A DNA stretch of 64,000 bases from Candidatus Algichlamydia australiensis (GCA_033977065.1 JAXCHI010000002.1:192001-256000); one strand, 5' to 3'. Positions 14,677 through 58,845 are shown, counted from the first letter of the stretch. Translations and numbers: made by a program. The notes: generated from the sequence alone by a model not told the origin.

Positions 14677-14799
14677 GGGTTGCTCATTTTTTTTGACTAA
14701 TGTTCCTTGTCAAACCTCAAAAGATTTGAATTTGTCGCATTAGCAATAAAACTTAAGCATCTGTGCGGGCTTTTATTATGTAAAATAATTTTTGGAGGT
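14677..14799. repeat. Family B repeat, degenerate copy ending in a duplicate of the tmRNA 3' end
   Basis: taagcatctgtgcgggcttttattatgtaaaataatttttggaggt parallels 14912-14959. Confidence 0.7.
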
Positions 14800-14952
14800 T
14801 CCCACCCCCAAAGACAAATTTTACAGACAAAAACGCCGCACAGCCACTCATCTTTTTCCGCTCGCTCCTTGGTAAACCCTCGGGTTTACCTGCGTCGCGA
14901 TCGAAAAAATCTAAGCACCTGTGCGGCGTTTTTGTAATGTAAAATTTATCTT
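14800..14952. repeat. Family B complete palindrome abutting the tmRNA 3' end
   Basis: Arms aaattttacagacaaaaacgccgcacag / ctgtgcggcgtttttgtaatgtaaaattt; central GGTAAACC-ctcg-GGTTTACC. Confidence 0.85.
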
Positions 14953-15351
14953 TGGAGGTGGAGAGAATCGAACTCTCGTCCTCAGCTAGTTTCCTAGGTT
15001 TGACTACATGCTTATTGCCTTAAGTATTTAAGAACTCACCCTTATGTAAGACACCCCATGTAGAGCGAGCTCTATCCCATATGTGTCTTGAGAAAATGCC
15101 CTATGGAATACAAGCACTCCTCATACCAAGATAAATGACGATCGTACACGAACTCTCGGTCCGATTCTGTGTGGATCGCGCTTAGGATGTCGGGTTAGGA
15201 CGCTAAGCTATCGCTCAAGCTTAAGCAGCTAGAGCAAAATCGCAATTTTCTTCGCCAATTACAATGCTAGTCGGATGATTTAGGAGGCCAACCGACGTCC
15301 TCCGCATGCCAAAAAATAGGTAAGCTACCAAGTCGAAACCTGTTCACCCCC
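14953..15351 (-). ncRNA. ssrA: tmRNA
   Basis: 5' GGGGGTGAACAGGTTTCGAC; 3' GAGAGTTCGATTCTCTCCACCTCCA with G3-U pair; tag frame 15256-15221 GEENCDFALAA*. Confidence 0.95.
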
Positions 15352-15520
15352 ATCTGTAATTATACCAGAAAAAACCTGTACAAGCAAACTAGCAACTGGT
15401 TAACAATCAGTAAGTTAGACTGGTGTTAGTTGGTGCTTTCACGGTTTTTCTGAAATTAGTGTAGGTTTTTGGGCTTTTTTTGGGTAGGACAAAAGCCTAA
15501 TTTTTAGTAAGATAAGGGCT

Positions 15521-18500
15521 ATGTTTACGACCGAAAAAGAGAGTTTCTCAAGCCGCGAAGAGCGCATTCTTAACTTGTGGAAAGAAAAAGATATTTTTAA
15601 AAAGTCAGTGGAGAACCGGAAGGGTTCAAAACTATTTTCCTCCTATGATGGCCCCCCGTTTGCCACGGGGTTGCCCCACTATGGCCATATTTTAGCGGGT
15701 ACGATTAAAGATGTTGTTTTGCGCTACAAGACGATGCAAGGGTTTTATTTGCCAAGGCGTTTTGGTTGGGACTGTCACGGTTTGCCGGTGGAAAATGAGA
15801 TTGAGAAGGCGAAGAATTTGGGTGGAGCGCCCTCAATTGAAAAATTTGGGATTGGCAATTTCAATGAGGAGTGTCGCAGCATTGTTTTCCGCTTTGTTGA
15901 GGAGTGGAAGAAGACGGTTGATCGGATGGGGCGCTGGGTCGATTTTGATCAGACGTATAAGACGATGGATCCGACCTATATGGAGTCGGTCTGGTGGGTC
16001 TTTTCTGAACTTTGGAAAAAGGGTTTGGTCTATGAGGGGTTTAAGGTGATGCCCTTTTCAGCAAAATTGGGAACCCCACTTTCTAATTTTGAAGCGAATT
16101 TAAACTACCGCGATGTAGATGATCCTTCGTTGACGGTTGCGATGCCTCTGAAAGAGGATGAGAATACGAGCTTATTGATCTGGACAACGACCCCTTGGAC
16201 GCTGATTTCAAACTTGGCCGTGATTGCCAATCCAAAGATGCGTTATGTCAAGGTAGAGAAAGAGGGGCGTTTCTATATCTTGGCTAAGAGTCGTTTGGAG
16301 CACTATTTTGAGGGGGCAAAGGCTGTAGAAGAGTTTTCTGGAGAAGACCTTGCTGAAAAAGAGTATTTACCGCCATTTGAATATTTTTCTGATCGTGCTG
16401 GGTTTCGCGTTCTGCTGGATGAATTTGTGGGCGAGGAAGATGGCACAGGTCTTGTGCATGCTGCGCCTGCGTTTGGAGAGATGGACTTTTTTGTCTGCAA
16501 GCGTGAGGGGATTGAACCAGTCTGTCCGATTGATCAGAATGGAAAGTTTACAAGTGAGATTCCTGAGCATGAGGGCCAGTTTGTCAAAGAGGCAGATAAA
16601 GCGATTATCAAACGTTTGAAAGAGGCGGGTAGGGTTTTTGATCATGGGACGATTCGTCACAGATACCCGTTCTGTTGGCGCTCTGATAGTCCTCTGATCT
16701 ATCGCGCAGTGAGCACTTGGTTTGTCTCGGTGGAAAAAATTAAGGAGCAGTTGATCACGGCAAATGAAAAAATTCATTGGGTGCCGGGGCATTTGCAAAA
16801 GGGACGTTTTGGGAAGTGGCTTGAAAATGCGCGCGACTGGGCGATCTCTCGCAATCGCTATTGGGGTACACCGATCCCAATTTGGCGTGCAGAGGATGGA
16901 GAGTGCATTGCAATTGGGTCGAAAGAGGAGCTTGAGAAGCGTACAGGAAAGAAAATTGAAGATTTTCATCGCCACTTTATTGATGATCTGACGTTTGAAG
17001 AAAATGGCAAGACGTTTTCGCGAGTGTCGGAAGTTTTCGATTGCTGGTTTGAATCGGGATCGATGCCCTATGCGCAAAACCACTATCCCTTTGAAAATAA
17101 AGAGTTGGTTGAGGAGGGCTTCCCAGCTGAATTTATTGCGGAGGGGCTTGATCAGACTCGCGGCTGGTTTTACACGCTCAATGTACTCTCTGTAGCGCTT
17201 TTTAACAGGCCCGCTTTCAAAAATGTGATTGTCAATGGGATCTTGCTTGCCGAAGATGGCAACAAGATGTCCAAGAGCCTGAAGAACTATCCGGAGCCGG
17301 AAATTGTTTTTGAAAAATTTGGTGCCGATGCAGTAAGGCTTTATCTACTCAATAGCCCCGCAACGCATGGCGATGACTTGCGCTTTTGTGAAAAAGGCGT
17401 TGAGCAAGTGGTGCGAGGGATGCTTTTGCCTCTTTGGAATAGCTACTTTTTCCTTGCGACGTATGCAAAAATTTATGGCTGGCAGCCAGGCGCAGATCTT
17501 GAAAAGCCGGAGGCGGTCATTGATCGCTGGATTCTCTCTAAGCTGCAGACTTTGATCTCTGATGTGCAGAAAAGTATGGATGAGTACCAATTAAGCGATG
17601 CGGTTCCTCCATTTTTGCGATTCATTGATCAGGTGACTAATTGGTACATTCGCCGCTGTCGTCCGCGTTTTTGGGCGGATGAAGATTCATCTGATCGCCG
17701 AGAAGCGTTCCAAACACTCTATCAAGTTTTGCAGAGTTTAGTCCGCATTGCGGCGCCGTTCATTCCTTTTATCAGTGAGGCGATCTACCAAGGTTTGCGC
17801 AGAGAAAAGGATCCAGAGTCTGTTCACCTTACAGATTTTCCAAAAATGAATCCTAATATGCAGGATGAAAATCTTGAAAAAGAGATGGCTCTTGCGCAGA
17901 CAGCTGTGAGTCTGGGGCATGCTCTTCGCAAAGAGGAGCGTATGAAAGTGCGCCAGCCTCTACCAAAAGTCTTTTTAATTTCGTCCGACAAGCAAGTCTT
18001 GACTGCCTTAAAAAGCAGCGAAAATTTGATCCTAGATGAGCTCAATGTTAAGGAAGTTGTCTACTCTGAAAATGAGAAAGAGTTTGTGGAAATCAAAGTG
18101 AAACCCAATTTCGCAGAGTTGAAAAAGCGAGCAGGTGCCAAAATGGGCCCAATTTGTAAAGCGGTTGGCTCGCTTTCAACAGAACAGGTTAACACCCTTC
18201 TTAATGGAAAATCTGTTGAGATCGAGGAAAATTTTGCTCTGACGGAAAAAGATCTTTTGATTGAGCGCAAAGTAAAGCAAGGTCTTGTCGCAAGTTGCGA
18301 AGGCGCACTAACTGTTGCTCTAGACTTGACCCTAAGTGAAGAGCTTAAACTTGAAGGTTTGGCCCGAGAAATTGTCAACAAGCTGAATACGATGCGTCGT
18401 GAAGCGAATCTTGAGGTTACAGATCGCATTGAGGTCCAGATAGAGGGTTCTGATCGCGTGAGCCAAGCGTATGAGCTGCATAAAGATTACATTTGTGGAG

Positions 18501-18598
18501 AAGCACTCGTAACAAAGTTAGAGATGGTTTCGAACACAGGTCAGGAGTGGGATTTGAATGGAGAAATGGCTAAAATAGCTATAAAAATAACTGCTTAG
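15521..18598 (+). CDS. ileS: Isoleucine--tRNA ligase (type 2, as typical of chlamydiae)
   Basis: DGPPFATGLPHYGH, GWDCHGLP, WTTTPWTL, EGLDQTRGWFY, KMSKS. Confidence 0.98.
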   Translation: MFTTEKESFSSREERILNLWKEKDIFKKSVENRKGSKLFSSYDGPPFATGLPHYGHILAGTIKDVVLRYKTMQGFYLPRRFGWDCHGLPVENEIEKAKNLGGAPSIEKFGIGNFNEECRSIVFRFVEEWKKTVDRMGRWVDFDQTYKTMDPTYMESVWWVFSELWKKGLVYEGFKVMPFSAKLGTPLSNFEANLNYRDVDDPSLTVAMPLKEDENTSLLIWTTTPWTLISNLAVIANPKMRYVKVEKEGRFYILAKSRLEHYFEGAKAVEEFSGEDLAEKEYLPPFEYFSDRAGFRVLLDEFVGEEDGTGLVHAAPAFGEMDFFVCKREGIEPVCPIDQNGKFTSEIPEHEGQFVKEADKAIIKRLKEAGRVFDHGTIRHRYPFCWRSDSPLIYRAVSTWFVSVEKIKEQLITANEKIHWVPGHLQKGRFGKWLENARDWAISRNRYWGTPIPIWRAEDGECIAIGSKEELEKRTGKKIEDFHRHFIDDLTFEENGKTFSRVSEVFDCWFESGSMPYAQNHYPFENKELVEEGFPAEFIAEGLDQTRGWFYTLNVLSVALFNRPAFKNVIVNGILLAEDGNKMSKSLKNYPEPEIVFEKFGADAVRLYLLNSPATHGDDLRFCEKGVEQVVRGMLLPLWNSYFFLATYAKIYGWQPGADLEKPEAVIDRWILSKLQTLISDVQKSMDEYQLSDAVPPFLRFIDQVTNWYIRRCRPRFWADEDSSDRREAFQTLYQVLQSLVRIAAPFIPFISEAIYQGLRREKDPESVHLTDFPKMNPNMQDENLEKEMALAQTAVSLGHALRKEERMKVRQPLPKVFLISSDKQVLTALKSSENLILDELNVKEVVYSENEKEFVEIKVKPNFAELKKRAGAKMGPICKAVGSLSTEQVNTLLNGKSVEIEENFALTEKDLLIERKVKQGLVASCEGALTVALDLTLSEELKLEGLAREIVNKLNTMRREANLEVTDRIEVQIEGSDRVSQAYELHKDYICGEALVTKLEMVSNTGQEWDLNGEMAKIAIKITA

Positions 18599-18615
18599 TT
18601 ATTTTTCGTCTCCTT

Positions 18616-18696
18616 CTCGCTGCGCCAAATCGAATCTCAGCCGTCGTGCCGTACGCAGTACTGCCACGCCGTCAGATATCCAATTTTGCTTTGCGA
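18616..18696. repeat. Family C palindromic repeat (diverged)
   Basis: ctcgctgcgccaaat...gtgccgtac-gca-gtactgccac...gctttgcga, related to 47381-47463. Confidence 0.6.
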
Positions 18697-18800
18697 TAAG
18701 AACCCGCTGTAGCCGCTTCGCGCAGTGCGAGTTTTTTTTGCAGTCGCTTCGCGTATCAATAAATCTACTTCAAACTAAGAACCTGCTGTAGCCACTTCGC
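18697..18800. repeat. 25-bp direct repeat pair
   Basis: taagaacccgctgtagccgcttcgc (18697-18721) and taagaacctgctgtagccacttcgc (18776-18800). Confidence 0.75.
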
Positions 18801-18845
18801 TCGGTATGAGCTTATTACGATTGTTTTGCTCTTTTGTAGTTGCCT

Positions 18846-18893
18846 CCTTGATTTTTGACCAAATAAAAAAATATTTACCTTGATTTTTGACCA
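18846..18893. promoter_or_regulatory. 16-bp direct repeats upstream of an ATPase remnant (possible operator)
   Basis: CCTTGATTTTTGACCA at 18846-18861 and 18878-18893. Confidence 0.5.
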
Positions 18894-18937
18894 TGAAGGT
18901 ATTGATTTAACCTTGAAATACAACCATGGGTAGTCAT

Positions 18938-19110
18938 GTGAAGCGTTTAGTTGTTTGGATTTCGTAAAATTAAATTTTAGGATTACAAAAAAAAGTAAAA
19001 TTTACCTTTGAAAAGGGCCTCGACTCAAAACGAGTTGTTAAAGAGTTATCCTTTGCAATGAGAGAAAAAATTACTCCAACTGAAACTCTCTTTGTTTTTG
19101 ATGAAGTAGT
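18938..19110 (+). pseudogene. Remnant of an AAA_14/DUF4143-type ATPase
   Basis: KVKFTFEKGLDSKRVVKELSFAMREKITPTETLFVFDEV ends at a Walker B-like motif; no intact ORF. Confidence 0.55.
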
Positions 19111-19114
19111 GACT

Positions 19115-20947
19115 TTACTCGATCTCTTGCGGGAGTCTGTGACGCTTGCGTTGGTAGTAGTTCCAAAGAAATATGAGGATGGCGGCTATAATCCAGATGA
19201 TAAAGTGAGGGAGTGTTAGCCACGGGTAGGGCGGCTGAACTGGCTGACCAAAGCGCGAGCCTGGTGGCCAGAAGATAAAGTCGGGTGAGCCGCGAAGGTT
19301 TCCTTGCGGGACAAATCCAAAGACGCGACTATCGCCGCTCATGGCGTAGTTATCACCAAGGGCGAGGTAGTGTTTTTCTGGGATTTTTAGCCCGTATGTT
19401 TGTAGAAAGTCGCAATCGATTTCTCCTTCTGGAGTAATTGGGGGGCCATGATCGATAAAGGGGAGGTAAGGTGCTGGCTTTGCTTTCTCTTCCTCAACAA
19501 ATTGTATAAGGTTTTTTTCATCTTTGTCGATAACTTTAGCTCCCATAACGTAGAGATCTCCATTGCGAAACCAGGCGAATCGCGAAGGGCGCAGGTGTTG
19601 GCACTCTTGGTTTGAGCCAAAGCGTGTATCAAATTCAATCCCAAGATTAAAGAGTGCTTGTAGCTGTTTGTTATTGGGGTGATTTAGGGGGTAATCTTCA
19701 GGAAGTTTTTTTGAAATTCCCTGCCATTGGATCTTGTAAGCTCTACCTTCACGGATTTCAAAGGTGCCATTTTCAATTCCTCGTAGTGGAACGACATAGT
19801 AGGGGATTGACTGATCTTTCGGAATGTGTGTCCCATACCTGTAGGCGTAGCCATCTCGAACTGTAAAGCGCGCGGTATAGAGGCCGCGATGGAGATGGGT
19901 CAGCTGTTGCTGAGTGAGGGGAATGATGGAGCTCTCCGTTTTTAATGCGGGTCTTCTTCGACCATAAATATCTAGTTCGAGGCTGGCTTCTTTAAGAGAG
20001 GGATCGTGTGTAAGCTCAAGATAGAGAGCCGCACCTTTTGTAAGCTCATGATCGGTCCACGCTTCTACTTCTTCTGTTGTCAGAAGCTTGGCCATAGCGT
20101 AGTTGCGCATGCCCCAAAGCTGTCCGTAATCCTCGACACCTGGTACAAGCATTTTTCCACAGATATCTCCTCTTCCTATCTGTGTAAGTTTAGCAACAGG
20201 TTGATTCATTTGATAGAAGATTGCAGGAGAGTAGATACCTCCACGGGGGCGGTCTGGTGTGACGGTTTTGCCTCCAAATTGGAGAAAAGGGACATGGTCA
20301 ACGTAGGGGAGCTCCGGATATTGCAACTCATGTGTGATGTCATTTCCATTGCAATCTACTCCGTATAGCTTTCCTCCATAAAAATAGACGGTATCTCCAG
20401 GTTTTCCCATGAGTCGTTTAACGAGTTGTTTTTTACCTGGAAAGATATAAAAATAGCGCATCTCGCTATCAGGAATATCCATGTTTGCTGTCGTAAAGGT
20501 GAAAATACCAGAGCGCTGAACAAGGTCAGGATCAAAATAGAGGTGAGTCGGTTTGAGGGGGGTATTGATTCCAAATGTAGTTTTGCTAACAGAGAGGCGA
20601 TCTTTTTCTTGTAGGGTTGGACGCATAGAGCCCGTTGGGATTTCATAGAGTTCAAACCAGACTTGACGGATCAAGATTGCGGCGATAAGAGCAAATCCTA
20701 AACCTACTATGGAGCGAAGATGATCATAAAAATCTTTTTTGAGATAGGTCTTTGAAAACTCTGCAAGCATGTTAGTCGCTTGCGTTGCTTCGTCCCGATC
20801 GTGTTCGATAATCGCTTTTTGAGCGGTTTTAAGCTCTCGACAAATTGTATCGCGCTCTTCGCTGTTTAGCTGTTCTCTTTTACGTCTGTATTTTTTTAGA
20901 GTAGCAAAGAATATCTTCTTGCACTTGCGTAGGGATCTAAATCTCAT
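19115..20947 (-). CDS. lepB: Signal peptidase I (long chlamydial form)
   Basis: YEIPTGSMRPTL, LVKRLMGKPGD, LALGDNYAMSGDSRVFGFVP. Confidence 0.95.
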   Translation of the reverse strand: MRFRSLRKCKKIFFATLKKYRRKREQLNSEERDTICRELKTAQKAIIEHDRDEATQATNMLAEFSKTYLKKDFYDHLRSIVGLGFALIAAILIRQVWFELYEIPTGSMRPTLQEKDRLSVSKTTFGINTPLKPTHLYFDPDLVQRSGIFTFTTANMDIPDSEMRYFYIFPGKKQLVKRLMGKPGDTVYFYGGKLYGVDCNGNDITHELQYPELPYVDHVPFLQFGGKTVTPDRPRGGIYSPAIFYQMNQPVAKLTQIGRGDICGKMLVPGVEDYGQLWGMRNYAMAKLLTTEEVEAWTDHELTKGAALYLELTHDPSLKEASLELDIYGRRRPALKTESSIIPLTQQQLTHLHRGLYTARFTVRDGYAYRYGTHIPKDQSIPYYVVPLRGIENGTFEIREGRAYKIQWQGISKKLPEDYPLNHPNNKQLQALFNLGIEFDTRFGSNQECQHLRPSRFAWFRNGDLYVMGAKVIDKDEKNLIQFVEEEKAKPAPYLPFIDHGPPITPEGEIDCDFLQTYGLKIPEKHYLALGDNYAMSGDSRVFGFVPQGNLRGSPDFIFWPPGSRFGQPVQPPYPWLTLPHFIIWIIAAILIFLWNYYQRKRHRLPQEIE

Positions 20948-20953
20948 GGCTGC

Positions 20954-20982
20954 ATGTTAGAGTCTTATAAAGGTGTTGTCAA
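20954..20982 (-). promoter_or_regulatory. lepB promoter, leaderless arrangement
   Basis: TTGACA-17 nt-TAACAT-6 nt-ATG. Confidence 0.7.
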
Positions 20983-20992
20983 GTGCTTATGG

Positions 20993-21148
20993 ACATACTG
21001 AATAATTTAGACTTTTCGATAAGGGACCAAAAATTGGTCCAAATCGGTTTTTCTAACTCACTAACTCTTATGGAGTTAGCTTCGTTCTCCAAAACCAATT
21101 TGTTCTCATTTTTTCATCTTTTCTCGAAAAGAGCAGTTATTCAGATGT
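20993..21148. repeat. Family D palindromic element, full copy
   Basis: Ends acatactgaataa / ttattcagatgt; inner caaatcggtttt / aaaaccaatttg; central CTAACTC-ttatg-GAGTTAG; homologous to 58691-58825. Confidence 0.8.
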
Positions 21149-21151
21149 TTT

Positions 21152-21805
21152 TTACGCGTCTCCGCTATCTATAAGGCGAATTTTAAATGTGGCAGCACTG
21201 TTTGAGATTTCCATCCAGCAAGGGAAAGGAGATCCTTCATGAAAGTAGAGTTCCAAGTTTTTTCCTGCAAGCTCTGTTCCATCATCAGGCCAGTGCGCTT
21301 TGTAGACTTTCGTAGCTATTTTTGTCAGTTTTTTTCCATTTTGAAAGAGGGGTGGATTCCAAATTTTACGCATATCTAGACCCTCTTGAGGAGGGGCTCC
21401 GATGCGTTTTCGATCTTTTTCTCGCACAGCTTTTAAGGGAAGAGCAATCAAATCAGTAAAGAGTTGCTGCGCTGATGAATTTAAGGAGACCTCTCTTTGA
21501 GGAGAGTAAGCATTTGTACAGACTCCTCTTGCCAAGTCTATTTCGTAGAGTAGGTGCGAGGTAGCTCCTGGGGTCCCGTCGCGATACCAGCTGCGCCAAT
21601 TTATTTTTTTTGCTTTATGACTAGGAATGCTGATCTCTTCTAAAACTACACGCTTATCGGTAAGAGATTGAATACGCATGAAAGTGACCAACTTGCTCTG
21701 CTCTGTGACGATGTATTGGCCCTCATGCGCAAAACGAAGGCGTTCCTTAATCGTCATAGAAAAAAGAGGTATAGCCAAGAATAGGGGAAGGATGAGGCGT
21801 AGCAT
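21152..21805 (-). CDS. Conserved chlamydial exported protein (CT021-like by position and motifs)
   Basis: Signal-like N-terminus, G.YIVTEQ, LEEISIP, WPDDGTELAGK, FPCWMEI; next to lepB. Confidence 0.65.
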   Translation of the reverse strand: MLRLILPLFLAIPLFSMTIKERLRFAHEGQYIVTEQSKLVTFMRIQSLTDKRVVLEEISIPSHKAKKINWRSWYRDGTPGATSHLLYEIDLARGVCTNAYSPQREVSLNSSAQQLFTDLIALPLKAVREKDRKRIGAPPQEGLDMRKIWNPPLFQNGKKLTKIATKVYKAHWPDDGTELAGKNLELYFHEGSPFPCWMEISNSAATFKIRLIDSGDA

Positions 21806-21814
21806 GGCCCGATT

Positions 21815-24753: not shown

Positions 24754-24761
24754 CAGTTCTT

Positions 24762-37511: not shown

Positions 37512-37677
37512 TAGGATAGCGTCGTCAAAAGGCTATAATCAGATTGTTTTTCATGTTTGCAGCTTATTTTTGTGCGGAAATTGAAGCTGAATTTGTAAAT
37601 TCCGCTTCATTTGAGCACAAAAATGGAGCCCAAACATGAAAAATAAGATGGTTGTATGCTTTTGACGACGCTATCTA
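37512..37677. mobile_element. Family A MITE, copy 2 (inverted)
   Basis: Reverse complement of 4510-4674 with two substitutions and one extra G at the left end. Confidence 0.9.
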
Positions 37678-38104
37678 ATACTCCCATGATAAGGGTTTTT
37701 GAAAAACCGACCGCCGAAATTTGAACATTAATTCTTCGATGTCGATATTTTTGGGGTCTTTTTTCAAATTTTCTATTAAAGTACCAGTACTCTTTAACAG
37801 AAAATTTTAGCATTATTTTTACGTCAAAGCTCTCGCATAAAATGGATCCCAAACGTGAAAAGTAAAGCGATTGTATGGAATTGAAGAAGCTGTCTAGACC
37901 TTGCAAAGTTTTCTACAAAACAAAAAAAACAGCCGCGCAAGCGACGTGAAAGAGGTCTCCTCCAGAAACGAAGTTGAGGGTGGGGAATGAATTTGTAAAC
38001 CTTCTCGTAGGGCAGCGGGGATTTGCCCAACTGTCTCTATTGGCTGTTTTTTAAATTAAACACTAAGATTTTCTGTTACAGAGTGCTAGTTATGATGTGC
38101 GGAT

Positions 38105-44768: not shown

Positions 44769-44832
44769 TAAAATTTGCCCTGTAAGAAATTAACACTCAA
44801 GTTGCTACCCCTACTCTTCCTCTAGAATGGAG

Positions 44833-44992
44833 CTGCCCTAGAAGTTAGGGGGCCGCACTGGAAAATTGGACAGGAAGTGGTGGAGTTTGGCTTTAACGGA
44901 CGCAGGACAGCTCTTAAGTAGAGCTGTTCAAGGAAGGCAAAGTCAAAGGTTGCCGCTTCTTGTTCCAATTTTTCCTGCGGGAACCTAACGTA
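44833..44992. repeat. Long imperfect palindrome on the tRNA(CAU) 3' end
   Basis: ctgcccta..gttagg..ccgca..aaaattgga..caggaag / cttcttg..tccaatttt..tgcgg..cctaac..tagggcag; central ACAGCTC-ttaagta-GAGCTGT. Confidence 0.8.
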
Positions 44993-45066
<74 letters not shown>

Positions 45067-45098
45067 ATGGAAGAGTAATGATAATAGGAAAGGGATTC

Positions 45099-51223: not shown

Positions 51224-52963
51224 GTGATAAGGGTGCTTCTTTTTTTAGTACCCGCAATGCTCCTTGCTAAACACTCGATTCTTCTTCCTACTGAGGAGGA
51301 ACTTGCCCACAAAATAGAAGATCACTTTATTCTTGAAGATTATGCAAGAGCAGAAGAGTTACTCAAATGGGGGTATGCGCACTATTCTGATTCTCTTATT
51401 TTAAAAAAGTTAGAACTTAAGCAACTCTCTCGTACAGGAAGGCAGAGAGAGGCGTTAGAAATTTGGAAGAAGATGCCTCTTCTTCCCGATAAAGAGCGGC
51501 GTCATCTACTTGAAGAGCTTGCTTGGGGGACCCTTGTAAAGGGGGAGGATTCGCAACAGTTTCCCTCGCGCTACTTTGCGCTTTTGGGAGCCTTTTTTAC
51601 AAGAGATGCGCGCGCCACATTTTATCTGCAAAGAGCTCTACGCTCTTCAAACGCAGCCCTACGCTCAATTGCAGTTCAGATGGTAGCAGATTACCGCGAT
51701 CCAGTTCTCATTGATGAGATCATTGAGATGATCGAATCGGAGAGAAATCAAAATGTGCGTTATGCATTGATGCAGACGGTTGGTCGTTTAAAGATCTACT
51801 CGGTTTCTCAGAAGCTTGAGCAACTACTCGATGGAGCAAGAGAGGATCTGCGCATGCGTGGATTCATTACTGAAGCGCTTGTCCACCTCTATGAAGATTT
51901 ATCTCAAGAGAGACTTTACGCTCTTCTCAATTCCCCTCGAACTGCAATGCGCTATCTAGGAGCACGCCTTATTGCCTATCTTGATCGCAGTGAAGAGATA
52001 CCTAAGCTAATCGATCTTCTAGATGATCCTTCTATTGACATACGTGTTATCGCGCTCTGCTCTCTGGGCGAGTTTTCTAATAAAACCTTACAAGACCAAA
52101 AACAACTTCGCGATAAACTTCTTCTCTTTAGTGTCGATACAAACCCGCACCTTGCATTAACCGCATCTTGGTTACTTCTGCGTACGGATCCTGTTGCAGC
52201 GCAAGCTCCTTTACACAAACTCCTCTATGAGTCTCATCAAAAGATTCGCCTTCTTGCTACAAGCGCCATTACAATTGCAGGAGAAGCGGGCTTACCACTT
52301 CTTCGTGAAGCGCTCTATAATAGTCCCGATGAATATGTGCGACTTAACAGCGCAAACGGGCTTCTCTCGCTTCGTGAAGAGACAAAAACAGCAAAAGATG
52401 AAATTAGCCATTTTCTCCATAAACAGACCGATCAAATCATGATCGATCGCTACAGCCACCCGATCTTTTCGCCTATCGCCCCATCGCTTGTGCGCCACTC
52501 TGTACAAGTCGCACGGCGTCCAGAGATGGTCGATCATCAGACACGCCTCTCTCTTATCTCTCTCCTTGCTATCGTCAACGATCCTCGTGCCGAATCTCTC
52601 ATCAAAGAATTTCTTCTCTCGCAAAACCTCAATATTGGCATGACTGCAACTGTAACGCTGATGAAAGAGGGGAGCAACGAAGGGCTAGAGCTTATCCGTA
52701 ACTTTCTTCACGACTCCAACCCAAAGCTTCGGCTGCAAGCAGCTCTCGCTCTTGCCTTCCTCTGGCAAGATCCAGCAGCCCTTTCTGTACTCACCAGCCT
52801 TTATGAAAAAGTTCCTTACGAAACCAAACTTGTCATCCTCGAGGCAGTCGCCGGAATCGGCGGCATGGCCCAAATCCCTTTTCTCCTCGAGCGACTTGAA
52901 GAACCTTTCCTCGTTCTACGTATCGCAGCAAGTTCTGCTCTCATCCAAGCGCTCCACCATTAG
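51224..52963 (+). CDS. HEAT repeat protein (CT384-like)
   Basis: Repeated helical units such as LLDDPSIDIRVIAL and LHDSNPKLRLQAALAL; conserved position after HIT. Confidence 0.75.
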   Translation: MIRVLLFLVPAMLLAKHSILLPTEEELAHKIEDHFILEDYARAEELLKWGYAHYSDSLILKKLELKQLSRTGRQREALEIWKKMPLLPDKERRHLLEELAWGTLVKGEDSQQFPSRYFALLGAFFTRDARATFYLQRALRSSNAALRSIAVQMVADYRDPVLIDEIIEMIESERNQNVRYALMQTVGRLKIYSVSQKLEQLLDGAREDLRMRGFITEALVHLYEDLSQERLYALLNSPRTAMRYLGARLIAYLDRSEEIPKLIDLLDDPSIDIRVIALCSLGEFSNKTLQDQKQLRDKLLLFSVDTNPHLALTASWLLLRTDPVAAQAPLHKLLYESHQKIRLLATSAITIAGEAGLPLLREALYNSPDEYVRLNSANGLLSLREETKTAKDEISHFLHKQTDQIMIDRYSHPIFSPIAPSLVRHSVQVARRPEMVDHQTRLSLISLLAIVNDPRAESLIKEFLLSQNLNIGMTATVTLMKEGSNEGLELIRNFLHDSNPKLRLQAALALAFLWQDPAALSVLTSLYEKVPYETKLVILEAVAGIGGMAQIPFLLERLEEPFLVLRIAASSALIQALHH

Positions 52964-53125
52964 ATAGCGTCGTCAAAAGCATACAACCATCTTATTTTTC
53001 ATGTTTGGGCTCCATTTTTGTGCTCAAATGAAGCGGAATTTACAAATTCAGCTTCAATTTCCGCACAAAAATAAGCTGCAAACATGAAAAATAATCTGAT
53101 TATAGCCTTTTGACGACACTATCTA
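52961..53125. mobile_element. Family A MITE, copy 3, inserted in a stop codon
   Basis: Same sequence as 4510-4674; its first TAG is the stop of the HEAT gene. Confidence 0.9.
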
Positions 53126-53203
53126 AAATAAAGGTTGTAATTTTATCAAATCTTAATATTTGCTATGCTGAAGCAATCTTTAAAATAGTATTGGTGAATT
53201 TCA

Positions 53204-56173
53204 ATGAAAGCTGCAAAAGTAACGCAAGAAATCCAAAAGGCATCGTGGCCCCTACCTAAAAATTTAACTGCTGTACAGAAATTTTTTAACACATCGATTG
53301 CCTATAGCAAGGAAAATCCTTATCTAGCTTTGGGTCTACTTGCAGGGGGTGTAACCGTTATTGGTGGAGCCTATTTTGCTAATAAACGCTGGGGAGCTCT
53401 CTCTTGCGTAAAACATTTATTGGGTTATGGCAATGCGGTCGCAAAAACCCCAGAAAAACCAGAAAGCAAGCTCCTTACCAAAGCCGAGTCGGACCGAGTT
53501 TACAATAAAATAAAAACAGATTTTGAAGCTTTTGAGAAAGCTCTTGAAAAGTGGGTCGAAGAACCAAACAAACTCGTTCCCGAAAAGAGCAAGAGGGAAA
53601 AAATAGCAAAAGATTTAATAAAAGAGCCTTTTTCCTTTCATGCAGAGGTTTATGTTGAATTAGGGAAATATGACGGACCAATGCCAACTTTGGGTGCTGG
53701 ACTTTATGTTTGGGTATCTGAAGCAAATAGTCAAAAAGAAAAGAGTGAAAGACTTACAGCTGCAGATAAGATTTTGAAGTGGAGAAGCGGTGAATTAGAC
53801 TTGTCTAATTTGAATTTAACGGAATTCCCAATTGCAATATTAGATCTTAAAAATGTCACTAGCTTGAATTGTTCAGGAAATAAGTTAAGTCAGGATAGCG
53901 CTTTCATAAATAGTTTTTTTAAAGCTGTAGATATTGAAAGTAAGGAAGAAGAATCTCAGAAGCTTAACAAAAAGTTTCGAGCTAAAGTTGCGTTAATTAA
54001 ACAATTAGATCTATCAGATAATCGAATTTCTGATCTAAATGATAATCCAATAATTAAAAATATTACTCACCTTAACCTTTCTAATAATACAATTGAAGAT
54101 CTTGATTTTTTTCAAAACTTAGAAAAGTTAGAAGAGTTGAACTTAAGCGGGAATCAGGAACTGAAAGAAAATGAGATCCCTAATCTTAAAAGGCTGCCAA
54201 AAGGGTGTAAAATAGACTTGTCCAATACTCCATATGAAGGGTGGAGTGAGCTACAAGAATACAAAGAAAAAAAATTAAAAGCACAATCAGATACTTTTAC
54301 TAAAGATTTTCCTAAATGGATAGATGGCAAGGAAGGAGTCCGGCTCCTAAAAGATATTTCGTCCGATGGAGGGAACTTTAAAGAGTGGATGGAAGATTTA
54401 GAAAAGGGAAGGTTGCCTAGTTTCTTTTTCAAAAATTTAGACAAATGCCCTTTGCCGCCTTTTACCCTTGAGCACTGTTTATACAAGTGGGTAGAACAAA
54501 ACAATGGCTCTTTAGACGAATTGCACAGAGTAGCAGCTGTAAAAAGAATCTTAGAAAGAAAAGGGGAAGAAGTAGATCTATCAGGATTGAGTTTAGATGA
54601 ACTACCGTACGCATTGCTAATTGTAAAAGGTGTTTCAAAGCTCAATTTATCAGACAATGCATTTGGCTCTGAAGGGGGGAAAGTAGTTAAAGGTCTGCGT
54701 GGATACAACTCTTCCAGCGAAATAAGCCCACTCTTAAAACAGTTTATGGAACCAGTAGAAGAAGTGGATTTCTCAAACTGTGGAATTAAGGCTTTTAAGC
54801 TTTCAGATGAATATCAAAGATTAAAAGCTCTTGACCTTTCCCAAAACGAATTAGAGCACTTTCAGTGTGAAGCTTCTGAAAATGCACTAACAGCGTTAAA
54901 TTTAGAGGGGAATACAAAAATTTCTTCATCAGAAACCTCTTTTTTGCTTTCAGGTCCAGAGTTCGCATCATGTAGCTTGAACGTGAAAGGTACAAGCTTT
55001 GATACCGAAATTGAGATTGCTCGTGGGAGCAAGTTTTCTCTTGGTTGGAAAGATGTTTCTCTTCATCCAAATTTTTATCGCTTAAATACCTCTAAATTGA
55101 TTATTGATGGAGCTTCTACCCTTGAGAAACTAGAGCAAGTAAATCAATTCTCAAATCTAGAAACAATAGTTTTCAAGAATATCACGATTCAAAAAAAAGA
55201 CTGGGAAAGAATTAACTCTTTAAAAGGGTTAAAGAAGATAGAATTTGAGGATTGCACTCTTTCTGACATGACGGCCCTAGAACTTCCAAAAGTTGAAGAA
55301 CTCACTTTTGCAGGAGAAAGTTTCGCAGACTTTCCATCTGGATTTTTTCGAAAGCTTCCTGCTTTAGAGATGTTGAAGCTAGAAGATAACTATAAACTTG
55401 AGAGTTTTCCACTCTCAGTGATAGAACTTCCAAAGACAGCGTTAGTAAAATTAAAAAATACAGCTTTTTCAAAAGAAAAAGTCATCAGAGATATCGACGC
55501 TAGAATTGTCCAAGGACCTAAAAGAGCACCAACAATTGAAGTTTTGGATCCAATTTCTGAAGTTCGTTGTAGAACTTTGAAAGCATTTGACGAGGGGACG
55601 TTTAGGCAGAGTCGAGGATATGCTACTCAAAAAGCAACAATCAAGAAGTTTGAAAGAAAAAGGTGTGGCAATGATTCTTTTAGAAAAGAATATCAGAAAT
55701 ACGAGGAAAAACTATCTCTTCTAGAGATAGAAAAAGATGATGCACTTTATTTGGATACAGGAAGTTATCCTAATCTTAAGCGTATCACTCTTACAGGGCC
55801 CGACGCTAAATGCAGTGATTTTGGCACGCTAAGCATGTTTCCAAAATTAGAAGAGCTCAATCTAATGAATTCTGGTCTTGGTTATATTGGATACTCAGTA
55901 TTTTCTACTTTAAAAAAACTGTCTTTAAATGGGGGAAAGCTTATAGAAGCACCAAACAATATGTCTAAGAACTTTAAAAGACTAGAAGTTGTAGAAATTT
56001 TTGGTAATTGTACTAAAGACGACTTAATGGAATTTGTTAAAAAATTGCCAGAAGGTGTTGAAATTCACTTGATTAATGCAAATCTTAAAAAAGAAGATCT
56101 CAGAGACAAGTTTAATCTTGGCGGTGACCAAAAAGAGGGACATAAGATCATATTTGTTAAAAAGATGCTATAA
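53204..56173 (+). CDS. Large leucine-rich repeat protein (candidate effector)
   Basis: LDLSNLNL, LDLSDNRI, LNLSNNTI, LNLSGN, LDLSQNEL; one N-terminal hydrophobic segment. Confidence 0.85.
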   Translation: MKAAKVTQEIQKASWPLPKNLTAVQKFFNTSIAYSKENPYLALGLLAGGVTVIGGAYFANKRWGALSCVKHLLGYGNAVAKTPEKPESKLLTKAESDRVYNKIKTDFEAFEKALEKWVEEPNKLVPEKSKREKIAKDLIKEPFSFHAEVYVELGKYDGPMPTLGAGLYVWVSEANSQKEKSERLTAADKILKWRSGELDLSNLNLTEFPIAILDLKNVTSLNCSGNKLSQDSAFINSFFKAVDIESKEEESQKLNKKFRAKVALIKQLDLSDNRISDLNDNPIIKNITHLNLSNNTIEDLDFFQNLEKLEELNLSGNQELKENEIPNLKRLPKGCKIDLSNTPYEGWSELQEYKEKKLKAQSDTFTKDFPKWIDGKEGVRLLKDISSDGGNFKEWMEDLEKGRLPSFFFKNLDKCPLPPFTLEHCLYKWVEQNNGSLDELHRVAAVKRILERKGEEVDLSGLSLDELPYALLIVKGVSKLNLSDNAFGSEGGKVVKGLRGYNSSSEISPLLKQFMEPVEEVDFSNCGIKAFKLSDEYQRLKALDLSQNELEHFQCEASENALTALNLEGNTKISSSETSFLLSGPEFASCSLNVKGTSFDTEIEIARGSKFSLGWKDVSLHPNFYRLNTSKLIIDGASTLEKLEQVNQFSNLETIVFKNITIQKKDWERINSLKGLKKIEFEDCTLSDMTALELPKVEELTFAGESFADFPSGFFRKLPALEMLKLEDNYKLESFPLSVIELPKTALVKLKNTAFSKEKVIRDIDARIVQGPKRAPTIEVLDPISEVRCRTLKAFDEGTFRQSRGYATQKATIKKFERKRCGNDSFRKEYQKYEEKLSLLEIEKDDALYLDTGSYPNLKRITLTGPDAKCSDFGTLSMFPKLEELNLMNSGLGYIGYSVFSTLKKLSLNGGKLIEAPNNMSKNFKRLEVVEIFGNCTKDDLMEFVKKLPEGVEIHLINANLKKEDLRDKFNLGGDQKEGHKIIFVKKML

Positions 56174-56174
56174 A

Positions 56175-56576
56175 TTAAGTTGTAAGTAAACGAAGAGCCT
56201 CTTGCTGCATTTTTAAATAGAGGCTCTTTAATCCGTTTGAACGGGTGGGGCTTAAGAGAGAAAGCAAGCCTAATTCTTCCAAAAACTTTGGCTGTTCCTT
56301 AATGACTATCTCGGGCTCTAGGCCGCTGTAAGCACTTTTTAATAGGGAGCCAAGGCCGGCGGAGATCAGAGCATCTGACCAGACTTCAAAAAATACCTTT
56401 CCGTCTCGAAATTTGGTTGTAAGAAACATTTGGCTCTGGCATCCATGTACAAGATTTTCTTTACACATCAATTTCTCATCCAATTTCGGCAGATTTCTCC
56501 CTAGTGCAATGATTTTTTCATACTTCTCTTGCGGGCTCTTACAGCTAGCAAAAGTTTTTTTAATTTCTTCAAACAT
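56175..56576 (-). CDS. sufE: SufE family sulfur acceptor
   Basis: VHGCQSQ, SDALISAGL, LSPTRSNGL. Confidence 0.9.
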   Translation of the reverse strand: MFEEIKKTFASCKSPQEKYEKIIALGRNLPKLDEKLMCKENLVHGCQSQMFLTTKFRDGKVFFEVWSDALISAGLGSLLKSAYSGLEPEIVIKEQPKFLEELGLLSLLSPTRSNGLKSLYLKMQQEALRLLTT

Positions 56577-56609
56577 GACAATATGTTACCAAAAACAAAT
56601 CAAATATTC

Positions 56610-56790
56610 TAGCCGTGCTCGCTTGCGAGCACTCGATGGACTTCGCTTGGCAACGAAAAATCGTGGTGCAAGAGGAAGGAGCAGTGCTCCGCACGGCCTT
56701 CCGATGAAACGCGATTTGGCGTGGCAATGGAAGTCTCAAGGGGGCCAGCAGGGGGTGTGCCTGCGGTCACACTCCCGACATGAAGTAAAG
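56610..56790. repeat. GC-rich hairpin cluster containing a family C-like core
   Basis: GTGCTCGC-tt-GCGAGCAC; reverse strand cgccaaatcg...gccgtgc-gga-gcactgc; GGGGGTGTG/CACACTCCC. Confidence 0.5.
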
Positions 56791-56922
56791 TGGCAGAAAA
56801 CTAAATTTATTATTTTATGTTTTCAAACCTGTATAGCAAAAAGAAATTTTTTTTCAAGAAGTTCTTGGAGGAAAATACAGGGTCGGATATGATAGATTAA
56901 GTTCCCTGAGTGGTTTACACCT

Positions 56923-57144
56923 ATGTCAAAAAAAGAAGATGTGATCAAATTAGATGGAAAAGTTGAAGAACTTCTCCCCAACATGACTTTTCGAGTTGCC
57001 CTCGAAAATGGAATGAAAGTTTTGGCCCATCTCTGTGGCAAAATGCGCATGAGAAATATCCGAGTCCTAGTAGGCGATACCGTTACGGTTGAAATATCTC
57101 CTTACGACTTGAGCAAAGCGCGTATTGTCTACAGAAAAAGATAG
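56923..57144 (+). CDS. infA: Translation initiation factor IF-1
   Basis: [28 protein letters not shown]. Confidence 0.98.
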
Positions 57145-57151
57145 GATATAC

Positions 57152-57180
57152 TTGCGAATTTTCGCATGCTCAGCTACAAT
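57152..57180 (+). promoter_or_regulatory. Promoter of tRNA-Thr/tuf
   Basis: TTGCGA-17 nt-TACAAT. Confidence 0.65.
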
Positions 57181-57220
57181 TTGAGGCGTTTAGTGCCCAG
57201 GTAGGAACAAAGTTTAAGGC

Positions 57221-57292
<72 letters not shown>

Positions 57293-57359
57293 GAGATTGA
57301 AATAATGACAGAAATGTCAGCTAAAGATTTAAATATCGTTATTCGGAGGAATAGATCAA

Positions 57360-58544
57360 ATGGCAAAAGAAGCCTTTCAACGAAATAAGCCCCACGTCAA
57401 CATTGGGACAATTGGCCACGTCGACCACGGAAAAACTACTCTAACTGCTGCTATCACTCAGTGTTTGGCAAAAAAAGGCGGCGCAAAGATGCGTGACTAC
57501 GCTTCTATCGATAATGCTCCTGAAGAGAAAGAGCGTGGAATCACCATTAACTCAAGTCACGTTGAGTACGAAACAGATGCACGTCACTACGCTCACGTAG
57601 ACTGCCCCGGACACGCCGACTATGTGAAAAACATGGTAACAGGTGCTGCGCAAATGGATGGCGGTATTCTTGTTGTAGCTGCTACTGACGGTCCCATGCC
57701 ACAAACAAAAGAACACATTCTTCTTGCTCGTCAGGTTGGAGTGCCTTCTATTGTTGTCTTCATCAACAAAATGGACCAAATCGGTGCAGGTGATGAAGAA
57801 CTCGTTGACCTTGTTGAGATGGAAGTTTCTGAACTTCTCGAAGCAAACGGTTTCAAAGATTGCGCAATCGTTCGTGGTTCAGCTCTAAAAGCCCTAGAGG
57901 GTGATGCAGAGTATGAAGCTAAGATTGAAGAGCTGATGAAAACTGTCGATGAAAAAATCCCAACGCCTAAGCGTGAAGTTGAGAAGCCTTTCTTGATGCC
58001 AATCGAGGACGTGTTCTCTATCTCCGGTCGCGGAACTGTTGTAACAGGTCGCGTTGAGAAGGGAATCATCAAGGTTAACGATAAGATCGAAATTGTTGGG
58101 ATTAGAGAGACTCGTGAGTCTGTAGCAACTGGTCTTGAAATGTTTAACAAACTTCTTGATGAAGCGCGTGCTGGTGAGAACGTTGGTGTTCTTCTACGCG
58201 GTATCGATAAGAAAGATGTAGAGCGCGGAATGGTATTGGCTGCTCCAGGTTCTATCACTCCTCACACAAAATTCAAAGGAAGTGTTTACGTTCTAAAGAA
58301 AGACGAAGGTGGTCGTCACAAGCCTTTCTTCACAGGCTATCGCCCGCAGTTCTTCTTCGGTACTACCGACGTAACTGGAACAGTAAAACTCCCAGAAGGA
58401 ACTGAGATGGTCATGCCTGGTGACAACGTTGAGCTTGAAGGAGAACTTCTTGCACCTGTCGCTATGGAAGATGGTCAGCGTTTTGCGATCCGTGAAGGTG
58501 GCAGAACAATTGGTGCAGGAACTGTATCGAAAATCATCGAGTAA
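57360..58544 (+). CDS. tuf: Elongation factor Tu
   Basis: [22 protein letters not shown]. Confidence 0.99.
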
Positions 58545-58561
58545 AACGGGTAGTGCATAGT

Positions 58562-58601
58562 GCTAAAGACACCCTCTAAAAATAGAGGGTGTCTTTGGCT
58601 T
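58562..58601 (+). terminator. Strong hairpin after tuf
   Basis: AAAGACACCCTCTA-aaaa-TAGAGGGTGTCTTT. Confidence 0.7.
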
Positions 58602-58612
58602 ATAAAAATTAT

Positions 58613-58685
58613 GGGTGTGTAGCTCAGCTGGTAGAGCAGCGGTCTCCAAAGCCGCAGGTCGGGGGTTCGATCCCCTCCGCACTCG
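58613..58685 (+). tRNA. tRNA-Trp(CCA)
   Basis: Cloverleaf with anticodon arm GCGGT-CTCCAAA-GCCGC; between tuf and secE. Confidence 0.95.
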
Positions 58686-58690
58686 CAATA

Positions 58691-58825
58691 GGAAGGGCTG
58701 ACCAATTGCTCTTTTCAAGAAGGTTTTGAAAAACAAAGTTAACTCCAAAAGTTAGCGAGTTTAAAAAAACAATTTGGGCCGATTTTTGGGTCCATATTGA
58801 AAAGTCTGAATTGTTCAGAGGTTCC
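58691..58825. repeat. Family D element, inverted and internally deleted, flanked by a GCAATA duplication
   Basis: Reverse complement aligns with 20998-21144; ends GGAA..CTGA / TCAG..TTCC; GCAATA at 58685-58690 and 58826-58831. Confidence 0.8.
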
Positions 58826-58845
58826 GCAATAGAGGTTAAGAGGAT

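Follow-up and report, generated by a model that had tools for sequence, protein, structure and literature searches.

A family of hairpins of about 160 nt, built around a conserved asymmetric core, was found at the 3' ends of the transfer-messenger RNA (tmRNA) gene, of tRNA(CAU) and of other stable-RNA genes of Candidatus Algichlamydia australiensis. The DNA analysed, hereafter the window, was the stretch of 64,000 nt at contig C2:192001-256000, and positions are counted from its first nucleotide; the genome (G000) measures 1.80 Mb in 7 contigs and is 93.4% complete. A first-pass annotation of the window had proposed one system of short palindromic elements docked on the ends of its tRNA-like genes. 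Our analysis separates two unrelated things: an ordinary MITE (a transposable element of the miniature inverted-repeat kind) at tRNA-Trp, and a single hairpin family at tmRNA, tRNA(CAU) and other stable-RNA genes, which we tentatively read as a mobile terminator or processing hairpin that is recognised as a single strand. The proposal was partly supported, in that hairpins abutting the gene end and pairing with the acceptor 3' strand recur for the core family (at tmRNA, tRNA-Met, tRNA-Tyr, tRNA-Leu(UAA), tRNA-Phe and 5S rRNA in this genome, in the congener G001, and at tmRNA across the order), and not as one system that takes in tRNA-Trp.

Four tRNA-like genes were found in the window by ARAGORN, with concordant Rfam calls: tmRNA (14953-15351, minus strand; tag GEENCDFALAA; RF00023, 137.5 bits), tRNA-Met with anticodon CAU (44992-45067, minus strand; the tRNA(CAU) of this text), tRNA-Thr (57221-57292, plus strand) and tRNA-Trp (58613-58686, plus strand). 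The tmRNA gene has no encoded CCA, since it ends in CACCTCC-A followed by AAG. When the window was searched with Rfam 15, the gathering score was reached by the tmRNA and tRNAs only and by no family for the hairpin module, which at permissive thresholds gave just weak microRNA-hairpin look-alikes. Two covariance models were central to the searches described here, R1, built from 14 cores, and the broader R2, from 70 aligned matches.

Hairpins at the tmRNA and tRNA(CAU) genes

The tmRNA gene runs directly into a hairpin unit of 160 nt (14802-14961, minus strand; unit 1), with a minimum free energy (MFE) of -107.2 kcal/mol and a z-score of -13.5 that was equalled by none of 200 shuffles. When its two strands were compared, the sense strand folded at -105.2 and the antisense strand at -77.9 kcal/mol. 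The base of the hairpin is formed by the last 9 nt of the tmRNA gene, CCACCTCCA (14953-14961), paired with the inverted copy TGGGGGTGG (14802-14810). Within the arms lies the conserved core module (14834-14928, minus strand; R1 87.1 bits, R2 83.4 bits), with unpaired AGAT/AGAT on its flanks and the strict motif GACGCAGG-hairpin-CCAAGGA at 14866-14896.

The far end of the unit is followed on the same strand (14793-14801) by a spacer G (14801) and AACCTCCA (14793-14800), which contains a direct copy of the tmRNA 3' end, CCTCCA (14793-14798). Positions 14793-14801 and 14802-14810 together form a small hairpin at this far end, and a simple terminator-like scan flagged just this small terminal hairpin (14791-14812). 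The same junction was present at every tmRNA locus among those listed. A degenerate second tandem unit follows (14670-14770, minus strand; R1 25.4 bits, R2 34.3 bits, E 1.3e-5); in its left part (14748-14799) it shares 81-88% identity with the tmRNA end joined to the left arm of the first unit. The locus can be written A-core-A'-A-core2, where the left arm X, its inverted copy X' and its direct copy X2 are 79-92% alike. A third copy, consisting of left arm and core, was found 3 kb downstream of tmRNA (11850-11944, minus strand; R1 71.1 bits, R2 67.7 bits).

At tRNA(CAU), a hairpin of ~168 nt (44833-45000, minus strand) was detected (z -6.1, matched by 0/200 shuffles), the base of which pairs the tRNA 3' end, CTGCCCTA (44993-45000), with TAGGGCAG (44833-44840). 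Here the core module (44867-44966, plus strand; R1 59.6 bits, R2 49.4 bits; strict motif at 44899-44934) lies on the strand opposite to the gene, and this strand is the more stable one (-96.2 vs -74.6 kcal/mol), a bias that is the same in G001. No direct copy of the gene end is present in this genome; in G001 the element is kept as two tandem units with the direct copy CCCCA after them. The distal arm follows the differences between the tRNA ends of the two species, being CTGCCCTA/TAGGGCAG here and TTGCCCCA/TGGGGCAA in G001.

Three statements of the first-pass annotation on these two genes were thus confirmed, namely that a palindrome begins at the gene end, that its distal arm is complementary to the acceptor 3' strand, and that both elements have a common core. 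In the whole 1.8-Mb genome, the pattern GACGCAGG-N8-30-YCAAGGA has exactly two occurrences, one at each of the two genes. The strict core, GACGCAGG-covarying hairpin-YCAAGGAG, is asymmetric and occupies the centre of both ~160-nt hairpins of the window.

As seen by eye, the tRNA(CAU) hairpin is directly followed by a solitary right end (GGGGTAGCAACTTGAGTGTT; 44792-44811, minus strand) of F4, a MITE family described below.

Core copies at other stable-RNA genes

Seven R2 matches at E<0.05 were found in the genome, and three more, at E 0.4-10, look like noise. The seven map to tmRNA (the two units and the copy 3 kb downstream), tRNA(CAU), 5S rRNA, tRNA-Tyr and tRNA-Phe. The 5S rRNA module, on contig C3, lies ~110 nt after the gene on the same strand, and beyond it the 5S end and its terminator are repeated in direct orientation, a duplication of ~65 nt. 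The tRNA-Tyr module is downstream of its gene and the tRNA-Phe module 6 nt after its own, both on the opposite strand. The element at tRNA-Leu(UAA) reached a model score of just 12.5 bits, yet its architecture and strand bias are like those of the other copies.

The same order of parts, gene end, hairpin, inverted copy and direct copy, was found at tmRNA, tRNA-Tyr and tRNA-Leu(UAA) in this genome and at tRNA-Met in G001. The hairpin base at the first three genes is the last 9-13 nt of the gene; at tRNA-Tyr, CAGCCGCCCCCAT is paired with ATGGGGGCGGCTG across ~164 nt, and the direct copy GCCGCCCCATTTC follows. The distal direct repeat of the gene 3' end is AACCTCCA at tmRNA, GCCGCCCCATTTC at tRNA-Tyr and GCTCCGAGTAAT at tRNA-Leu. 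These direct copies measure 5-13 nt, and each is preceded by an inverted copy. The arms differ throughout among the copies in this genome, only the centre being conserved, and blastn finds no second full copy.

Five independent core loci, which account for six of the seven R2 matches, lie within ~110 nt of a stable-RNA 3' end. The DNA outside long open reading frames (ORFs) amounts to ~159 kb, of which the 200 nt after each of ~40 stable-RNA genes make up ~5%, so that the chance of all five loci falling at stable-RNA ends is, as a rough estimate, ~3e-7.

When the 190 nt at 37 tRNA-like gene ends were compared with those at 399 long-ORF ends, an MFE of -65 kcal/mol or lower was obtained for 4/37 and 15/399, and at least 8 long-range pairs anchored at the gene end for 10/37 and 107/399, respectively (Mann-Whitney p = 0.05). 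Palindromes as a class are therefore at most weakly, and not clearly, enriched at tRNA ends relative to other gene ends. The acceptor complementarity does recur, in the core family only: a downstream inverted copy of the gene's own last 9 nt (at most 1 mismatch) was found at 3/37 tRNA-like genes and in 38/1332 mismatched-pair controls, and the three genes are tmRNA, tRNA-Met and tRNA-Tyr, all carriers of the core, tRNA-Tyr giving the single exact match.

The first-pass annotation had also read a sequence complementary to the gene's 3' end into the leader of tRNA-Thr. This is a 7-nt match (57194-57200 against 57286-57292) within a short direct copy (9/10) of the gene's own 5' end (57194-57204, plus strand), and neither R1 nor R2 matches there. 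An inverted copy of the last 9 nt (at most 1 mismatch) within 250 nt upstream was found at none of the 37 tRNA-like genes and in 25 of the 1332 controls, which places the tRNA-Thr leader at chance level.

Arrays of another kind were observed downstream of tRNA-Ser(UGA) and tRNA-Ser(GCU) (G000 C2:358889-359900 and C3:249611-250700; loci L251 and L250), with tandem units of ~155-185 nt, at the end of each of which the final 17 nt of the tRNA are repeated (AATCCCTCYYTTCCGA-type). The arrays had no core-model match, and their Rfam matches were sub-threshold only.

Conservation across the order

The congener G001 keeps elements at tmRNA, tRNA(CAU), tRNA-Tyr, tRNA-Leu(UAA) and tRNA-Phe, with arms that have diverged and are still complementary; its tmRNA element has 87% identity to the one described here. 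The genome G002, from the sister genus, has no elements at tmRNA, tRNA(CAU), tRNA-Tyr or tRNA-Leu, and its tmRNA is followed by plain hairpins only. In a genome of another family (G003), tmRNA carries two tandem units with different arms and the same centre.

Across the order, R1 matched 40 of 150 genomes at E <= 1e-3. At 12 of the 30 best loci the R1 match starts 24-26 nt past the tmRNA 3' end on the same strand, often with 2-6 tandem units. The strict pattern CCACCTCCA-N125-155-GGTGR-N0-5-CCTCCA was present in 27 of 401 genomes of the order, from many families, and the reversed control pattern had no match in the 401. These 27 tmRNA units are 158-164 nt long. The module follows 5S rRNA on the same strand in G058, two complete units with different arms occupy one tmRNA site in G062, and left-arm homology after the direct copy was read by eye at about half of 11 tmRNA loci. 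To weigh vertical against horizontal descent, pairwise identities of the tmRNA gene and of its element were compared over 11 genomes; with the congener set aside they did not correlate (Mantel r = -0.21), but both are saturated at this depth, so that the comparison says nothing on descent.

Several single loci deserve mention beside these counts. In G001, a 95% copy of the distal-arm region and, without a mismatch, 25 nt of the tmRNA 3' end were observed again on contig C7 (812-876 and 1994-2018), and may represent the far boundary of an element integrated at tmRNA. In G044 (C1:357331-359932, locus L068), tmRNA is followed by hairpin units of 179-nt period with six R1 matches in a row, and by a seventh R1 match and a second copy of the strict pattern ~2.4 kb further on; the left arm is replaced from unit two onwards. 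The tmRNA trailers of two genomes from different families (G353:C38 and G319:C85, loci L122 and L124) agree in length, fold values and sequence as far as listed, which reflects either a recent transfer or the binning of a single contig into both metagenome assemblies.

Structure and strand polarity of the module

Twenty-five of the 27 tmRNA units were aligned, two near-identical rows being left out, and folded with RNAalifold, which gave a consensus of 55 pairs, 40 of them changing on both sides. Paired cells amounted to 93.9%, compared with 69.8% in shuffles (0/500 reached the observed value) and 38-52% with slid partners, and the covariation score was 0.671, compared with 0.193 (0/500) and 0.10-0.16, respectively. 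The centre of the module is a stem, a 6x5 internal loop (GACGCA/AAGGA), which is a conserved non-pair, and a covarying apical hairpin. Further parts are a GC-rich stem set between an A-run and a T-run, and outer arms that evolve fast and are always complementary. The AGAT non-pair is conserved in 26/27 and 25/27 units on its two sides, and the A-run, present in 21/27 units, mirrors a T-run of at least 4 in the right arm of 20/27.

The tmRNA-sense strand was the more stable one in 26 of the 27 units (mean -100.7 vs -81.3 kcal/mol), with 139 G.U pairs on the sense strand and 38 on the other. Among dispersed copies in other genomes, the core-sense strand folded better in all 20 examined. The tmRNA and tRNA(CAU) genes of the window lie 30 kb apart on the same strand with their cores in opposite directions, so that a mutation bias between replication strands cannot explain this polarity, which belongs to the module and its core and not to the gene. 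That mismatches are conserved and G.U pairs one-sided suggests that it is a folded single strand, either RNA or DNA, that is recognised.

Carriage by insertion sequences and MITEs

The module is not restricted to tRNA-like genes, since it also occurs after 5S rRNA and, away from RNA genes, in IS5-family elements and MITEs. Exact core matches were found 19 times in G174 and six times in G150, within MITEs of ~170 bp that have shared termini and 3-4-nt duplications. Similar core-bearing MITEs are present in G062 and G073, and shared termini were seen in the copies of G174, G062, G073 and G087. A longer repeat in G086 and G087 has the hairpin immediately internal to one of its terminal repeats and encodes a DDE_Tnp_1 transposase of the IS5 family (PF01609, PF13612), read towards the hairpin. 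In G036, with 16 R1 matches, all four copies that were inspected precede, on the core-sense strand, a hairpin, which in three cases has a clear T-run, and they look like small transcription units.

No intact IS5-family element bearing the module hairpin was seen in the genome studied here, which has four DDE_Tnp_1 matches. The elements of ~160 nt hold no ORF, and no integrase was found within or beside them. That no responsible enzyme is visible, as first remarked for the window, holds genome-wide as well. Two tyrosine recombinases (PF00589) were detected, on contigs C6 and C3, neither near the loci nor on the contig of the window, and their size of ~300 aa suggests that they are candidate XerC and XerD. 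No match to PF01797 (Y1 HUH transposase) was found in the 93.4% complete genome, while control genomes matched; no match to PF01548 (IS110-type DEDD transposase), no reverse transcriptase and no serine recombinase were found in the genome either.

The MITE at tRNA-Trp and other palindromic repeats

The element after tRNA-Trp (58692-58824) is a copy of a dispersed MITE family, here named F6, as indicated by blastn to other copies, clustering and termini. A palindrome had been described at this site and is present, with weak folding (z -3.1; 2/200 shuffles were as good). The duplication reported to begin at the discriminator was also confirmed, as the 8-nt direct repeat CGCAATAG flanks the element (58684-58691 and 58825-58832), and its first copy includes the last acceptor base and the discriminator of tRNA-Trp. 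Family F6 comprises 8 palindromic copies that cluster, plus partial blastn matches, with the common termini GGARAYACTGAAYAAC. The other F6 copies have 3-4-nt TTAA- or TAAA-like repeats only, so the 8 nt at tRNA-Trp are longer than usual.

In G001, the tRNA-Trp gene is 99% identical and the 133-nt body is absent from the orthologous site, which is thus an empty site. The models R1 and R2 had no match on the tRNA-Trp element. Its inclusion in one system with tmRNA and tRNA(CAU) was therefore abandoned, and the element is an ordinary MITE insertion whose duplication happens to take in the last bases of the tRNA. For the core family, no empty/filled polymorphism was seen.

Palindromic repeats are abundant in this genome. 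A gapless palindrome scan, which misses gapped elements such as those at tRNA-Met, tRNA-Trp and tRNA-Lys, gave 252 centres that reduce to 132 palindromes of at least 100 nt genome-wide, falling into 10 clusters (36, 19, 15, 12, 11, 8, 4, 4, 3 and 2 members) and 18 singletons. Most of these palindromes belong to MITE families located away from tRNA ends. At least 8 families of MITE-like repeats were distinguished, with family-specific terminal inverted repeats and near-uniform length, mostly 160-175 nt. Examples in the window are F1 copies at 4510-4674, 37515-37675 and 52960-53126 and an F2 cluster at 37789-38084. Outside it, an F7-type MITE begins ~6 nt after tRNA-Lys (G000 C3:158794-158921), a mini F4-like element consisting of termini only begins right at the tRNA-Leu(CAA) end (G000 C3:712660-712724), and an F1 copy lies near tRNA-Gly. 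The F7-type and F4-like cases indicate that ordinary MITEs also settle close to tRNA ends. Family F5 was considered as a diverged member of the core family, as its centre looks alike by eye, and was set aside because R2 did not match it.

Genes downstream of tmRNA

Two tandem paralogous ORFs, ankyrin-like by sequence and with similar upstream regions, were found downstream of tmRNA (12271-13599 and 13881-14594, both on the minus strand). The pair sits between copies of the hairpin module, the third copy (11850-11944) lying beyond both, and the region looks like a small decayed island or a local duplication. A 39-nt copy of the distal arm of unit 1, 97% identical by blastn, was detected at 13678-13716 (minus strand), and probably came along when the ankyrin-like gene and the region upstream of it were duplicated in tandem. 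Between these genes and the third hairpin copy, a half copy of F5 and the termini alone of F3 were recognised by eye (12100-12250, minus strand).

Discussion

The reading that we prefer, although we hold it tentatively, is that the module works as a folded single strand, read on the core-sense strand and most likely as RNA. Its inner ~110 nt could be a two-way intrinsic terminator or a processing hairpin. At tmRNA and 5S rRNA, where it lies in sense, it would make up the transcript's 3' trailer, a long duplex closed onto the mature 3' end; the tmRNA end must be cut and CCA added, because CCA is not encoded. The module would also be, or have been, mobile DNA; in other chlamydiae, IS5-family insertion sequences and their MITEs carry it as a subterminal hairpin. 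Within this genus, the ends of stable-RNA genes would have been seeded with it, in one orientation or the other. Docking would have duplicated the last 5-13 nt of the gene, giving the direct copy, and the palindrome would have extended into the gene end, giving the inverted copy and leaving the gene intact, while repeated events would have produced tandem units. The origin of docking is the weakest step of this proposal, with three options: integration of a small circle or hairpin carrying an inverted and a direct gene end, guide-like pairing between arm and target, or fold-back template switching. The anatomy, conservation, covariation, strand polarity and placement of the module and its carriage by IS elements and MITEs are observations, and its transcription, its role in termination or processing and the way it docks are inferred.

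Our confidence in a mobile terminator or processing hairpin stays below one half because of the antisense cores at four tRNA genes and of RNA evidence confined to assembled contigs. At these four genes the better-folding strand is antisense to the tRNA, and so is not the gene's own trailer in the preferred polarity, and the gene downstream of tRNA-Met runs in the same direction, with no convergent transcript evident. The T-run lies within the right arm, and termination there would leave no upkeep of the outer stem at the RNA level, yet the outer stem covaries. Covariation of palindrome arms is in itself no proof of selection, as template switching can keep DNA arms complementary, and the direct copy of the gene end is unexplained by any RNA function. 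Other points that weigh against the proposal concern mobility and placement. The core-bearing copies in this genome are without the shared terminal inverted repeats of IS5-type MITEs; no site-specific docking enzyme was found in the genome (93.4% complete), which has two tyrosine recombinases only; and in the more distant relatives G009, G013 and G014, 10 of 12 examined matches had no stable-RNA gene within 1.5 kb, the other 2 being upstream of tRNA genes. Among contigs assembled from RNA runs (Logan), parts of the tmRNA body (14944-15350) are covered and the trailer by none, although such contigs cannot show RNA ends and so say nothing for or against transcription.

The hairpins could instead be purely selfish, site-specific mini-elements with no host role, in which the arm is a guide or one half of a dyad-symmetric recombination site, and which insert at tRNA-like ends, regenerate the target and build tandem arrays with an enzyme supplied in trans, either a host Xer-type recombinase or an unrecognised nuclease. 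The succession of gene end, element, inverted copy and 5-13-nt direct copy at four genes is what would be expected from an integrating circle or hairpin that carries an inverted end joined to a gene end, and this architecture is unchanged relative to the gene whichever way the core points. Tandem units that each end in AACCTCCA, the six R1 matches ~179 nt apart in G044, the two complete units with different arms at one site in G062 and the patchy distribution in the order (27/401 genomes) are consistent with such an element, and the strand polarity suits recognition of folded single-stranded DNA. Nevertheless, we consider it somewhat unlikely, since the terminal arm matches its own gene each time, so that the ends would have to change at every hop; the elements are stable between both species of the genus, with no empty/filled polymorphism seen for the core family; and the genome has no Y1 HUH or IS110-type transposase, serine recombinase or reverse transcriptase, and two tyrosine recombinases, none on the contig of the window. 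A more specific proposal, to which we assign a low probability, is a self-targeting mobile element of 160 nt whose terminal arm is a guide complementary to the acceptor 3' strand, inserted exactly after the discriminator, with the asymmetric core as the handle for an enzyme in trans (Xer-type or an unrecognised nuclease). The tmRNA gene would be its ancestral home, the IS5-family elements would have captured the module, and the target recreated at the far end of the element would explain the tandem arrays.

No recombinase is needed if the hairpins arose from untargeted local replication errors, in which a terminator hairpin after a heavily transcribed stable-RNA gene seeds fold-back template switching, the flank being copied first inverted and then direct, and quasi-palindrome correction keeps the palindrome. 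The order A-core-A'-A-core2 at tmRNA with arms 79-92% alike, the direct copy of the 5S end and its terminator after the 5S rRNA module, and the left-arm homology after the direct copy in about half of 11 tmRNA loci are in line with this. It seems quite improbable to us, however, because it leaves the same core at unrelated loci and in IS5-family elements and MITEs unexplained, and because correction should erase mismatches, yet AGAT/AGAT and the 6x5 loop are conserved and the G.U pairs are one-sided. That nothing specific is at work, MITE-type palindromes being abundant in intergenic DNA and some of them lying beside tRNA genes by accident, is very improbable overall. The 132 palindromes of at least 100 nt, of which the tRNA-Trp element is one such copy, the F7-like, F4-like and F1 copies near tRNA-Lys, tRNA-Leu(CAA) and tRNA-Gly, and the weak enrichment in the general fold test agree with it. 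Five independent core loci within ~110 nt of stable-RNA 3' ends (~3e-7 by chance) and a tmRNA position that recurs in 27 genomes with 0 control matches do not, and accidental placement is rejected for the core family, while it stands for the tRNA-Trp element.

Three further ideas were discarded. A reverse-transcription primer-binding site does not fit an inverted copy that lacks the CCA complement in a genome with no reverse transcriptase. A mimic of the alanine minihelix (GGGGG...CCUCCA, with G3.U70) was dismissed as most genomes have A3-U70 instead, as read by eye. The features of an integron attC-like site, or of a kink-turn for the internal loop, do not seem to fit.

Among known repeats, Correia copies occur at many genes, and the terminal inverted repeats they share are fixed and come with a TA duplication. 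In contrast, the arms of the module differ by copy and only its centre is conserved, its outermost stem is the neighbour gene's own 3' end, and all of its copies in this genus are at stable-RNA genes. The two are alike in being of similar size, non-coding and hairpin-forming. The Correia/NEMIS elements of Neisseria, MITEs of ~155 bp, form long RNA hairpins together with neighbouring genes, and were proposed as RNase III substrates that affect neighbouring transcripts (PMC2229807). The same article, citing Ogata et al. 2002, mentions Rickettsia palindromic elements (RPE) fused into the tmRNA and RNase P RNA genes (PMC2229807). Both RPE and the module are palindromic, belong to obligate intracellular bacteria and are associated with RNA genes; RPE insert within genes, also in frame in proteins, whereas the module abuts the gene end and leaves the mature RNA unchanged.

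Integrase-encoding islands at tRNA and tmRNA 3' ends (an ssrA-targeted example appears in PMC3146451) share with the module a distal direct repeat, an intact gene and tandem arrangements. Unlike them, the module is ~160 nt long, has no integrase, and its repeat of 5-13 nt is preceded by an inverted copy. Repetitive extragenic palindromic (REP) sequences, of which super-families with a conserved tetranucleotide tag are described in PMC3733652, and bacterial interspersed mosaic elements (BIME), both with REP-associated tyrosine transposases (RAYT; Y1 HUH), are comparable, as are IS200/IS605-derived palindromes, in being hairpin DNA that is structure-recognised and strand-specific. REPs measure 20-40 bp and are numerous, whereas the module measures ~160 nt, is present in few copies, and the genome has no Y1 transposase. 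The 178-bp repeats of E. coli tyrT are arranged in tandem after the tRNA-Tyr gene, each with the tRNA 3' end, and are non-palindromic, with no conserved hairpin core. They resemble the tRNA-Ser arrays and the tandem tmRNA units described here in being tandem and ending in a copy of the gene 3' end. Of the closest described systems, namely the Correia/NEMIS elements, the RPE and the integrase-encoding islands at tmRNA, none joins an asymmetric conserved centre, variable arms that include the neighbour gene's end and a restriction to stable-RNA ends. In the literature outside subscription journals, neither a hairpin in the trailer of a chlamydial tmRNA nor palindromes docked on the ends of tRNAs were found described, and tmRNA, tRNA and words beginning with palindrom occur 0 times in the main text of the paper on this genome (PMC11317633).

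Some of the unusual repeat load of this symbiont genome is accounted for by the hairpin module. If it is transcribed, many chlamydial lineages would have, attached to their tmRNA, a strongly covarying RNA structure that is undescribed, and it would be a new handle on how these intracellular bacteria terminate and trim CCA-less tmRNA, tRNA and 5S rRNA precursors. Should the module be mobile DNA in the main, it would represent an integrase-free route to the ends of tRNA-like genes, by means of a palindrome that incorporates the target's own end, and would indicate that a module of this sort can be acquired and disseminated by insertion sequences. In both cases, it offers a testable case for why the ends of stable-RNA genes attract foreign DNA.

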